This document shows, piece by piece, positions 12,001-15,000 of a stretch of DNA of 18,769 nucleotides. The stretch lies in the IMG/VR virus record IMGVR_UViG_2541047426_000010, positions 1 to 18,769 of that record; one strand, 5' to 3'. Every line of letters starts with the position of its first letter. Within the stretch, counting starts at the first letter, position 1. This DNA is from a virus (Duplodnaviria > Heunggongvirae > Uroviricota > Caudoviricetes). Made by a program: the position numbers.

Positions 12001-15000
12001 TGGGTGGTGGAGCAGATGTCAGAGCTGACGGCCATGACAGCCTCGTTTGTGCTGGCAACACCGACGGAGACGGACGGAGCGCTGTTTCCCGGTCGCATTA
12101 TGCTGGCGAATACCTGTATGTGGACCTACCGCTCTGATGAATGTGGGTTACACGGTCCGGCAGTGGCGGATGAGTTCGACAACCCCACCACGGATATCCG
12201 TAAGGACAGATGCAGCAAGTGCATGCGCGGGTGTGAGATGCGCGGCATGGTGGCTAATTTTGGCGGTTTCCTTTCCATCAATAAACTTTCGCAGTAAATC
12301 CTGTTTTATGACACAGACTGAATCAGCGATTCTGGTGCATGCCCGGCGGTGTGCGCCTGCGGAGTCGTGCGGCTTCGTGATAGGCACCCCGGAGGGCGAA
12401 CGGTACCAGCCCTGCGTGAATATCTCCGCAGAGCCGGAGGCGTATTTTCGTATTGCGCCGGAAGACTGGCTGCAGGCAGAGATGCAGGGGGAGATTGTGG
12501 CGCTGGTTCACAGCCACCCTGGTGGTCTGCCCTGGCTGAGCGAGGCCGACCGGCGGCTGCAGATAAAGAGTGCCCTGCCCTGGTGGCTGGTCTGCCGGGG
12601 GGAAATTCACAAATTCCGCTGTGTGCCGCACCTGACCGGGCGTCGTTTTGAGCACGGGGTGACGGACTGTTACACCCTGTTCCGGGATGCATACCATCTG
12701 GCGGGGATAACGCTGCCGGATTTTGTGCGTGAGGATGACTGGTGGCGCAACGGTCAGAACCTTTACCTGGACAATATGGCGGCGACTGGTTTTTACCGGG
12801 TGCCCCTGTCCTCTGCACAGGCGGGCGATATCCTGCTGTGCTGCTTTGGCGCATCGGTGGCCAATCATGCCGCCATATACTGCGGCAACGGTGAACTGCT
12901 TCACCATCTGCCTGAACAACTGAGTAAACGGGAGAGGTATTCCGAAAAATGGCAACGACGAACGCATTCTGTCTGGCGTCACCGCCACTGGCACGCATCT
13001 GCCTTCACGGGGATTTGCAACGATTTGGCCGCCGCCTCAGCCTGTATGTGAACACGGCAGCGGAAGCCATCCGGGCGCTGTCGTTACAGGTGCCGGGATT
13101 CCGCCGTCAGATGAACGAAGGCTGGTACCAGATACGTATTCGCGGTGAGGACACGGCACCGGAGGCGGTGTACGCCCGTCTTCACGAACCTCTGGGTGAG
13201 GGGGCGGTCATCCATATTGTGCCGCGACTGGCCGGGGCCGGAAAGGGCGGACTGCAGATTGTGCTGGGGGCGGCAGCCATCGTGGGCTCTTTCTTCACGG
13301 CCGGGGCATCAATGGCGTTATGGGGTTCAGCCCTGGCAGCCGGTGGTTTTTCTGCCACCACGATGCTGTTTTCACTGGGGGCCAGCATGATACTGGGCGG
13401 TGTGGCCCAGATGCTGGCACCGAAGGCAAAAACACCGGAGTACAGGGCGACGGATAACGGTAAACAGAACACGTATTTTTCGTCACTGGATAACATGATT
13501 GCCCAGGGGAACCCGATGCCGGTGCCTTATGGTGAAATGCTGGTTGGTTCACGACGGATATCCCAGGACATCAGCACCCGTGATGAGGGCGGAGACGGGA
13601 AAGTGGTGGTTATCGGGCGGGGATGAAAATAAAAAAATCCCGCAGAGTTAGCGGAGCTGCGGGAGAGAACGATGAAGATTAACGTTATGGAGTTATTTTT
13701 CAGGCATCAAAAAAGTAATGCAGCGTCATTATTGCGGCTACAGGCAATTGCCGGAAATGTGAAGAGTTTCAGAAATTTTATTCCGTCATGACACAGGCAC
13801 CCTCCGGGGTGCCTGTTGTTTTCTGGCATAAACAGATTCAGACATCAGACAGGAGAGGGGGACAGAGTGGGTAAAGGGGGCGGCAAGGGGCACACGCCGG
13901 TAGAGGCAAAGGACAATCTTAAGTCCACGCAGATGATGAGCGTGATTGACGCCATTGGTGAAGGGCCGATTGAAGGTCCGGTGAAGGGGCTGCAGAGTAT
14001 TCTGGTGAACAAAACCCCACTGACGGACACGGACGGCAATCCCGTGATACACGGTGTGACCGCGGTCTGGCGCGCCGGGGAGCAGGAGCAGACACCGCCG
14101 GAAGGTTTTGAGTCATCCGGCTCTGAAACCGCACTGGGCGTGGAAGTGACGAAGGCAAAGCCGGTGACGCGCACCATTACGTCCGCGAACATTGACCGCC
14201 TGCGGGTTACCTTCGGGGTGCAGTCACTGGTGCAGACCACCTCACAGGGTGACCGTAACCCGGCATCCGTCCGCCTGCTGATTCAGCTGCAGCGTAACGG
14301 TAACTGGGTGACGGAAAAGGATGTCACCATTAACGGCAAGACCACCTCACAGTTCCTCGCTTCGGTGATTCTGGATAATCTGCCTCCCCGTCCCTTTAAC
14401 ATCCGGATGGTCCGGGAGACGGCGGACAGCACCACGGACCAGCTGCAGAACAGAACGCTGTGGTCGTCATACACCGAAATCATCGATGTGAAACAGTGCT
14501 ACCCGAACACGGCGATTGTGGGGCTGCAGGTGGATGCGGAGCAGTTTGGCGGTCAGCAGATGACGGTGAACTACCATATCCGCGGTCGCATCATCCAGGT
14601 ACCGTCAAACTATGACCCGGAAAAACGCACGTACAGCGGCATCTGGGACGGCAGCCTGAAACCGGCATACAGCAACAACCCTGCCTGGTGCCTGTGGGAC
14701 ATGCTGACCCACCCGCGCTACGGAATGGGAAAACGCCTGGGGGCGGCGGATGTGGACAAGTGGGCGCTGTATGCCATTGTGACACTGCCGGAGACCGGTG
14801 CCGCCACGGTGAACCTGATTAACGGCAGCGGTAAGCCGGTGAGTGTGGACATCACCGCACACCCCGCGCCGGACCGGATACAGGTCAGTACCCTGCCTGA
14901 TGGTGTGGAGACATACGGGGTGTGGGGACTCTCCCTGCCGTCACTGCGCCGTCGCCTGTTCCGCTGTGTCTCCGTCCGGGAAAACACGGACGGCACCTTT

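Follow-up and report, generated by a model that had tools for sequence, protein, structure and literature searches.

An insert between tail genes I and J of a Caudoviricetes genome is a copy of the small RNA gene EcOnc22-24, a diverged homologue of PasB that very probably acts through Hfq

The DNA analysed here, referred to as the window, is a stretch of 18,769 nucleotides from a virus of the class Caudoviricetes (IMG/VR record IMGVR_UViG_2541047426_000010). The gap between the tail genes I and J spans 13627-13866 (240 bp), with I stopping at 13626 and J beginning with a GTG at 13867, preceded by the Shine–Dalgarno (SD) sequence GGAGAGGGGG at 13852-13861; J encodes 941 amino acids and has an internal deletion. 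The boundaries of both genes are identical in the RefSeq annotation of identical copies. In lambda-type relatives the gap measures 60 bp, so that gene calls and relatives agree with the initial annotation, which had set the 240-bp gap against some 60 bp in lambda. The gap contains two hairpins, one on the minus strand with a U-tract and one on the plus strand with a T-run, as well as an open reading frame (ORF) of 39 codons. The features are as follows.

12949-13626, plus strand: tail assembly gene I (Pfam PF06805, Lambda_tail_I, E = 3e-15)
13631-13721, minus strand: small RNA (sRNA) gene, EcOnc22/23/24 copy and PasB homologue (covariance match, gap identity)
13631-13663, minus strand: Rho-independent terminator of the sRNA (terminator scan, fold)
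13664-13682, minus strand: predicted single-stranded pairing region (segment conservation; unpaired or weakly paired in the fold)
13672-13791, plus strand: 39-codon ORF, present, not a conserved gene
13728-13733, minus strand: -10 hexamer of the predicted sRNA promoter, AATAAT (position conserved in the alignment)
13751-13756, minus strand: -35 position, weak in the window variant (TTCCGG, against TTCACA in most variants)
13755-13784, no strand assigned: nearly invariant A/T-rich block upstream of the sRNA promoter (column conservation)
13793-13824, plus strand: right hairpin, terminator-like (10 bp, 7 of them GC, with a T-run), 43 nt before J
13867-16692, plus strand: tail tip gene J (GTG start; Pfam Ig_J and related domains)

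The left hairpin has a 7-bp stem (CCCGCAG/CUGCGGG), in which 13657-13663 pairs with 13639-13645 across a loop of 11 nt, and is followed by AUUUUUUU (13631-13638), a likely Hfq site. The A-run at 13631-13637 on the plus strand is the U-tract of this hairpin on the minus strand. The terminator scan calls it on that strand (fold -13.2 kcal/mol, z = -4.1) and the covariance match described below agrees, as expected from the initial reading of it as an intrinsic terminator for minus-strand transcription. The right hairpin, with its stem at 13793-13816 followed by TGTTTTCT, is called on the plus strand (-23.1 kcal/mol, z = -4.4), and the GC stem with a T-run proposed there is confirmed as a stem of 10 bp. 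Three terminator-like sites were found in a 1.5-kb test region, against 1.3 +/- 1.1 in shuffled sequences; this count alone being weak, the stronger argument for the hairpins is the conservation of their stems. Both are kept in 32 distinct variants, with 97% of cells paired compared with 23-50% when the partner is slid. The left stem is invariant across these variants whilst its loop varies freely in length and sequence, with 0 invariant columns out of 16, and the right hairpin has one covarying pair (C:G to U:A, in 13 of the 32).

A covariance model built from 20 other variants, window-type sequences being left out, gave a single match in the window, at 13631-13721 on the minus strand (72 bits, E = 5e-13), 5 nt past the stop codon of I. 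On this match, the left hairpin is the terminator of an sRNA. No feature is annotated in RefSeq under the match. The window sRNA folds at -20.3 kcal/mol (z = -4.1). Its 3′ end at 13631 matches the published 3′ end of PasB, and its 5′ end would lie near 13721, a start 7 nt past the -10, or near 13706 on alignment with the published PasB 5′ end, giving a predicted length of 76-91 nt, compared with 83-85 nt for published members. Two parts make up the pairing region: the linker CGUUCUCU at 13664-13671, which is highly variable, and a conserved motif at 13672-13682, UUAAUCUUCAU, whose AAUCUU is invariant. The reading as an RNA gene fits because the terminator stem is invariant with a free loop, the -10 is conserved and AAUCUU does not vary.

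The -10 hexamer reads AATAAT in the window; a second type, that of E2348/69, has TATAAT, and a third has TATCAT. In the promoter scan the E2348-type sequence TTCACA-16-TATAAT scores 11/12, whereas in the window, with its poor -35 (TTCCGG), no promoter was called at the predicted sRNA start. We infer that the A/T-rich block at 13755-13784 serves the sRNA promoter as an UP element or activator site. Across 13755-13792, 31 of 38 columns are invariant, and the invariant TGTGA-N6-TCAGA (13758-13773) is the only CRP-like half-site pair in the window, with 0.13 expected over its whole length. The centre of this site lies about 35 bp from the -10 centre (about -44.5). Canonical class II promoters have the CRP site near -41.5, 32 bp from the -10 centre; with the spacing 3 bp off, the canonical class II arrangement was set aside, and CRP activation of the sRNA promoter is a candidate. 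The most conserved stretch of the gap, 13755-13824, lies outside the sRNA and is only partly explained.

The sRNA in the gap is already known, having been published as EcOnc22-24 in E. coli O157:H7 Sakai. The nucleotide search suggested by the initial annotation found the gap to be 100% identical to the I–J gaps of the Sakai prophages Sp15, Sp14 and Sp11, and homologous to that of E2348/69. Hfq-CRAC peaks opposite the tail genes define EcOnc22 (Sp15), EcOnc23 (Sp14) and EcOnc24 (Sp11), which run at about 85 nt on northern blots and are destabilised in delta-hfq (Tree et al. 2014, Table S2, PMC4104026). They share with the window sRNA the I–J locus and the strand relative to the tail genes, and about 85 nt fits the predicted 76-91 nt; with no detectable difference between them, the window carries another copy. 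The published coordinates refer to genome version 1, and a shift to version 2 of about +128 to +138 was deduced with AsxR (+135 to +139), AgvB1 (+137 to +146) and StxS (+123 to +141) as calibrators. After this shift the EcOnc22 peak falls at about 13720-13645 of the window on the minus strand; unshifted, it would fall on the right hairpin (13843-13783, minus strand), a genome-version artefact that the three calibrators correct. A fourth calibrator, PasA/EcOnc51, was ambiguous because its terminator is duplicated 150 nt downstream. The assignment of EcOnc22 to a strand and position rests on the inferred coordinate shift, as does, together with the sequence identity, the transfer of its published Hfq binding and Hfq-dependent stability to the window sRNA.

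PasB is an 83-nt, northern-validated, minus-strand RNA of prophage PP6 in EPEC E2348/69 (Pearl Mizrahi et al. 2021, PMC8550237). It lies in a 240-bp I–J gap in the same orientation as the window sRNA and with the same 3′ end relative to the I stop codon, and the two share an identical terminator stem and U-tract, the conserved -10 and the motif AUCUUCAU. The PasB northern probe (PMC8550237, Table S6) matches window positions 13636-13658. Identity between the window and E2348/69 is 84% over the gap and 81.7% over 86% of PasB. The window sRNA differs in having a 5′ body 7 nt shorter, TTCCGG rather than TTCACA at the -35, and CGUUCUCU rather than UUGUCUGU as the linker beside the terminator; since the linkers differ, target specificity probably differs too. 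Zhu et al. (2026 preprint) put the PasB seed immediately 5′ of the terminator, and in E2348/69 a RIL-seq chimera partner has next to it the sequence GACAGACAG, with which the linker UUGUCUGUC pairs. PasB is Hfq-dependent, with 37 RIL-seq partners, an RNA-seq baseMean of 482-1082 (5-15 for I and J) and log2 fold changes of -6.8 and -2.4 in delta-hfq; no common target motif is reported for it in file 9 of PMC8550237, which has no PasB entry. The publications cited for PasB and for EcOnc22-24 do not state that these RNAs are homologous. Sequence comparison indicates that EcOnc22-24 from EHEC and PasB from EPEC are one family at the same I–J site, and that this family appears to combine a fixed promoter and terminator scaffold with a variable stretch beside the terminator.

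Three gap classes keep the sRNA in its place between I and J. In the 340-bp class, homology with the window-type gap ends near 13784: the A/T-rich block is kept up to about that point with the sRNA promoter, and a different hairpin stands before J. The 851-bp class carries sodC together with a PasB-like element next to I, which lacks the -10 and the upstream block, the block having been lost with the promoter. The sodC moron shares the I–J insertion site and minus-strand orientation of the window sRNA, but encodes a protein. About 15% of complete E. coli genomes carry the sRNA, and many of these have several copies of it. The I–J junction thus looks to be a recurrent moron site, occupied by the sRNA on its own, with another segment or with sodC. 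The same classes speak against the proposal that the two hairpins bracket one unit, as the right hairpin is replaced in the 340-bp class and lambda has, in its 60-bp gap, its own hairpin followed by TTTTGTC at the same place before J. The terminator scan calls neither the lambda hairpin nor that of the 340-bp class, apparently because the T-run is taken up in extending the stem by A:T and G:T pairs; both were assessed by their folding energy. Since other gap classes carry different hairpins there, the right hairpin is better read as a late-operon feature just upstream of J, where it would form a separate terminator-like element that Q-modified polymerase would read through.

Comparison with other sRNA families gave no second identity. 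The Rfam search that had been suggested as a check returned no family in the window at gathering thresholds (AgvB, AsxR, STnc100 and Esr41 included), and the best sub-threshold hits (E up to 10) within 13500-14000 reached at most 15 bits, which is chance level. AgvB and AsxR (RF02702, RF02703) resemble the window sRNA in being short, Hfq-binding, encoded in EHEC lambdoid prophages and antisense to the late operon, and their families likewise join a conserved 3′ scaffold to a variable pairing part. Identity with them was rejected because they occupy the PR′ moron site rather than I–J; they act as sponges of host sRNAs, and the window has no sequence or structure match to them, although the models do find AgvB and AsxR in Sakai. 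HnrS (EcOnc10-12) is a multicopy, Hfq-associated sRNA of the prophage late region in EHEC and EPEC, whose pairing region contains AAUCUUC (Poudyal et al. 2026, PMC13502914). Its locus, after Rz, and its sequence are different; the common AAUCUUC is too short to identify the two, and the test of the HnrS seed CUUCUACC against the hha ribosome-binding site (RBS) was negative, pairing of the window sRNA with the hha RBS being no better than with shuffled targets (proportions of shuffles at least as good, 0.09 and 0.37).

The 39-codon ORF raises the alternative of a small-protein moron or a type I toxin-antitoxin locus, in which the ORF is translated and the antisense RNA covers its RBS and start. 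The ORF call confirms the basic 39-residue frame with an SD-like GGGAGAG noted initially, and the sRNA is antisense to the SD, the ATG and the first 16 codons, as in hok/sok-type loci; in hok/sok and ldr/rdl, too, a small ORF has its RBS and start codon under an antisense RNA. Yet 22 of 52 unique variants have ACG or ACA in place of the ATG, and the frame ranges from 6 to 54 amino acids, with frameshifts, truncations and indels that are not multiples of three. The peptide, which has no match in Pfam, is basic, carries charged residues along its whole length and lacks any membrane-spanning stretch; a type I toxin was rejected accordingly, the ORF being neither conserved nor hydrophobic. The flanking plus-strand genes are, moreover, almost silent in lysogens. 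Set against the hairpins, as the initial annotation had advised, the ORF is broken or loses its start whilst the stems are kept in 32 variants, and the idea of a small-protein moron falls with it. The complement of the pairing region 13664-13682 on the plus strand is the ORF's GGGAGAG and ATG, which have this look because the sRNA pairing stretch resembles an anti-RBS/anti-AUG sequence. Comparison of variants largely refutes the protein-coding reading, which we regard as very improbable. Equally so is the suggestion that the gap holds no gene and consists just of terminators, or of a conserved linker for recombination between mosaic tail modules; the gap content is indeed modular and swapped between prophages, but northern blots, Hfq-CRAC, RNA-seq and RIL-seq show a discrete RNA from identical or homologous sequence, so that published expression data already contradict it.

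Two further explanations concern what else the locus might do. If the sRNA acted mainly in cis, it would pair with the late transcript on induction, leading to cleavage between I and J or to titration of the sRNA by abundant late mRNA. Its full complementarity (about 91 nt) to the I–J part of that transcript and its constant place in the three gap classes speak for such a role. A purely cis function, however, has no need of an invariant AAUCUU and a conserved terminator scaffold with a variable linker, PasB has its 37 trans partners on Hfq, and lambda tails are built without the element; as the main function this is unlikely, though as a second role it is compatible with a trans-acting sRNA. 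Alternatively, two sRNAs might converge, about 13755-13824 being the 3′ end of a plus-strand Hfq-type RNA cut from the I mRNA or started in the gap. The best-conserved part of the gap does form an A/U-rich stretch, a strong hairpin and a U-run on the plus strand, one variant has a U:G pair tolerated on that strand only, and convergent sRNA dyads occur at a different moron site in these prophages. Against this, no such RNA appears in Table S2 of Tree et al. (PMC4104026), from which peaks within 100 nt of a coding sequence were filtered out, and no plus-strand RNA from the I 3′ UTR or the I–J intergenic region is found among the RIL-seq matches listed. Nor are the block and the right hairpin one unit, because the 340-bp class keeps the block with the sRNA promoter and replaces the hairpin. 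A convergent pair is accordingly quite unlikely.

Very probably, then, the I–J gap carries an sRNA moron: a further copy of EcOnc22/23/24 that is homologous to, but diverged from, PasB and acts in trans via Hfq. The gene would specify an RNA of about 76-91 nt on the minus strand, antisense to the late operon, from its own sigma-70-type promoter, with an intrinsic terminator that abuts the stop codon of I. Identical or homologous sequences yield an RNA that is made in lysogens, bound and stabilised by Hfq, and ligated to many mRNAs on Hfq. It would thus be a trans-acting, Hfq-dependent base-pairing regulator, with UUAAUCUUCAU-CGUUCUCUCC, the single-stranded segment immediately 5′ of the terminator, as its pairing site. 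The inserted, independently transcribed module of the initial annotation, for which a small RNA was one guess, is in this way recovered as a minus-strand sRNA with its own terminator.

A more speculative model, which we think quite improbable, views the gap as a two-layer RNA switch in which a titrated, lysogeny-only sRNA is joined by a second, plus-strand RNA and retargeted in each prophage copy. The block and hairpin at 13755-13824 would be the 3′ end of an induction-specific plus-strand RNA, and on induction EcOnc22/PasB would be titrated by the Q-antiterminated late transcript, to which the sRNA is complementary over its whole length. The sRNA would act as a regulator in lysogeny only, its variable seed beside the fixed terminator scaffold retargeting each copy.

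The raw sequence by itself had thus sufficed to pick out a genuine prophage sRNA gene, one validated by experiment and still left blank in genome annotation. Three points go slightly beyond the papers cited: EcOnc22-24 and PasB would be one family, that family would pair a fixed scaffold with a variable stretch, and the I–J junction would be a recurrent moron site.

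The window, which spans terminase, the tail genes and lom, is the late region of a lambdoid prophage of EHEC type. Genes I and J are separated by 240 bp, as against 60 bp in lambda-type relatives of gene I, and the initial annotation was right both in calling this gap long and in placing within it two opposed terminator-like hairpins, the strands of which were confirmed by a terminator scan. The 39-codon ORF noted on the plus strand between them (13672–13791) is also present. The features of the junction are as follows.

12949–13626, gene I (Pfam Lambda_tail_I)
13639–13645 paired with 13657–13663, minus strand, stem of the left hairpin, a terminator in the terminator scan
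13793–13816, plus strand, right hairpin with a 10-bp stem followed by TGTTTTCT, a terminator in the terminator scan
13867, GTG start of gene J (Pfam Ig_J, FNIII-A_GpJ, Ig_GpJ_C)

The left stem is preceded on the plus strand by AAAAAAA (13631–13637) and folds at −13.2 kcal/mol (z = −4.1); the right hairpin folds at −23.1 kcal/mol (z = −4.4). Gene J itself (13867–16692, plus strand) encodes 941 amino acids. Relative to the 3478-bp J of O157:H7 PV15-279 it lacks ~620 nt in frame (reference positions 916–1532), and identity falls to 82% over the distal 1.9 kb; this J is therefore mosaic and possibly defective.

The element in the gap is an already known small RNA. PasB of EPEC E2348/69 is an 83-nt RNA on the minus strand, from 1466343 to 1466261 of NC_011601.1 (PMC8550237, Table S6), validated by northern blot with the probe AATCCCGCAGTGATCGCGGAGCT (Pearl Mizrahi et al. 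2021, PMC8550237). Its interval lies inside the 240-bp gap of E2348/69, where the tail assembly gene ends at 1466255 and gpJ starts at 1466496, and which aligns to the window gap with 84% identity. The probe corresponds to 13636–13658 on the plus strand of the window, which places the RNA on the minus strand, with its end at the left hairpin. In E2348/69 lysogens PasB is a discrete transcript, ~100-fold above the flanking tail-gene mRNAs (baseMean 482–1082 versus 5–15), strongly dependent on Hfq (log2 fold changes of −6.8 and −2.4 in Δhfq) and with 37 RIL-seq partners (PMC8550237). In O157:H7 Sakai, EcOnc22, EcOnc23 and EcOnc24, from prophages Sp15, Sp14 and Sp11, are homologous Hfq-CRAC peaks (Tree et al. 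2014, PMC4104026, Table S2); EcOnc22 is ~85 nt on a northern blot and is destabilised in Δhfq (PMC4104026). The I–J gaps of these three prophages are identical to that of the window. The earlier suggestion of a small RNA is thus borne out by minus-strand RNAs published at the same position. The link between EcOnc22–24 and PasB, which PMC4104026 and PMC8550237 do not draw, is made explicit here; also added are the rejection of the ORF, a modular map of the I–J junction and an invariant upstream block.

Placement of the EcOnc peaks rests on an inferred coordinate shift, as the published positions refer to NC_002695.1 and the record used here is NC_002695.2. AsxR (Rfam match 1268629–1268681, published peak 1268494–1268542) gives +135 to +139, AgvB1 gives +137 to +146, and StxS (EcOnc15), whose 85 nt between the GU/AUU cleavage site and tR' lie at 2926079–2926163 (published peak 2925956–2926022), gives +123 to +141. 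Overall, published Sakai small RNAs are displaced by ~+123 to +146 at 1.27, 1.94 and 2.93 Mb; a fourth calibrator, PasA/EcOnc51, was ambiguous. A single shift was applied to EcOnc22, EcOnc23 and EcOnc24 because all three peaks hold the same place in their gaps, and with +128 to +138 EcOnc22 falls at ~13715–13645, minus strand. Unshifted, the peaks fall on the minus strand of the right hairpin, which the calibrators show to be the wrong feature.

A second candidate of the Pas family lies at 189–262 (plus strand), upstream of the terminase genes and on the strand of the late genes. It is 92% identical to nucleotides 12–85 of E2348/69 PasA, with which it shares the terminator GCCAGCAC...GTGCTGGCTGTTTTTTT; it has no Rfam match. 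HnrS (EcOnc10), another prophage small RNA, lies in Sakai Sp12 (locus L135, ~2234367–2234435) between Rz and the late gene that follows, on the other strand; no homologue was found in the window, the sole match to L135 being 36 nt at 86% (285–320).

Of 5426 complete E. coli genomes, 710 carry the 240-bp gap at ≥80% coverage (median 3, maximum 9 places per genome), with no annotation under these matches. VT1-Sakai is among several Stx phages whose gap is 100% identical to the window's. A covariance model built from 20 aligned distinct RNA variants of other prophages, window-type sequences excluded, gave a single match when run unfiltered against the 18.8-kb window (13631–13721, minus strand, 72 bits, E = 5e-13).

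Across 32 aligned variants the terminator stem is invariant and the U-tract retained, while the loop, with 0 of its 16 columns invariant, differs freely in both length and sequence. AAUCUU, which belongs to the motif UUAAUCUUCAU (13672–13682), is invariant; variation is greatest in the 8–11 nt linking this motif to the stem (mean pairwise identity 0.55). The −10 element occupies a fixed position as TATAAT, AATAAT or TATCAT. The E2348-type promoter, TTCACA-16-TATAAT, has 11 of 12 matches; in the window type, AATAAT is combined with TTCCGG, a poor −35.

The small-protein reading fares badly when variants are compared, as the ORF is not conserved. Aligned at the invariant AAGAT, 30 unique variants start with ATG and 22 have ACG or ACA instead. 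The ORF spans anywhere from 6 to 54 codons, some frames continuing into J, and its frame is shifted by indels of lengths not divisible by three. The peptide has no Pfam match and no hydrophobic stretch. Only the SD-like sequence and first codons are conserved, and they are complementary to the single-stranded part of the small RNA that is itself conserved. The likeliest reading of the apparent SD and ATG is that they mirror an anti-RBS-like pairing region in this RNA.

Loci with gene I relatives (given L-numbers here) fall into several gap classes: ~60 bp (lambda type), 234–263 bp (33 distinct sequences, the window included), 336–344 bp, 662–714 bp, with a minus-strand sodC in the sole sequence inspected (Citrobacter, 714 bp), and 851 bp, with a minus-strand sodC inside. 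The model found the small RNA in the 240, 340 and 851-bp classes, every time directly after I, and none in the 60-bp class. The sodC (Cu,Zn superoxide dismutase) moron occupies the junction in L011, L037 and related loci (851 bp) and in L108 (Citrobacter). Between sodC and I, the 851-bp class has a PasB-like element (76–78 bits); the −10, the upstream block and the right hairpin are absent. Lacking the first two, this element may be made within the sodC 3' UTR. Identical lambda-type loci (L090–L103, L105; 67% to the query) turn up in assemblies from unrelated taxa (Neobacillus, Shewanella, Pseudomonas and Bradyrhizobium among them), many on low-coverage contigs and several of ~48.4–48.5 kb, which has the look of a spike-in of phage lambda or of contamination with it. 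A Streptomyces flavalbus assembly (L087) likewise contains an E. coli-type prophage contig.

The best-conserved part of the gap is 13755–13824, comprising a block and then the right hairpin, which carries one compensatory pair (C:G to U:A) in 13 variants. In the block (13755–13792), 31 of 38 columns do not vary among the 32 variants; it is not part of the transcript but sits upstream of the promoter. Homology with the 340-bp class stops near 13784. In L022, L024, L079, L082 and others of that class the small RNA and its promoter are kept, and an unrelated ~180-bp segment, with its own very stable and possibly bidirectional hairpin (AAAACCCCGGTATC...GATACCGGGGTTTCTCTTT, −32 kcal/mol), takes the place of the right hairpin and of the J leader; the 60-bp gap of lambda has yet another hairpin followed by TTTTGTC. 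This break, and the differing hairpins before J, point to two modules: 13627–13784 would comprise the small RNA, its promoter and the upstream element, and 13785–13866 a terminator-like hairpin and J leader belonging to the late operon. Of the initial annotation, the structure and the minus-strand small RNA stand; the small protein and the joining of both hairpins into one unit do not. Within the block, TGTGA-N6-TCAGA (13758–13773) is the sole match in the window, where 0.13 would be expected by chance, and might tentatively be taken as a CRP-like site. The distance from its centre to the −10 exceeds that of canonical class II promoters by ~3 bp. Such a site would fit the higher level of PasB in LB than in DMEM in EPEC (PMC8550237).

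The small RNA would act in trans by Hfq-dependent base pairing through 13664–13682. In E2348/69 the linker UUGUCUGUC is predicted to pair with GACAGACAG, beside a RIL-seq chimera partner in the pasA–holin intergenic region. A secondary role in cis is possible: on induction the RNA could pair with the late transcript, to which it is complementary. As the linker differs among variants, different copies of the small RNA may have different targets.
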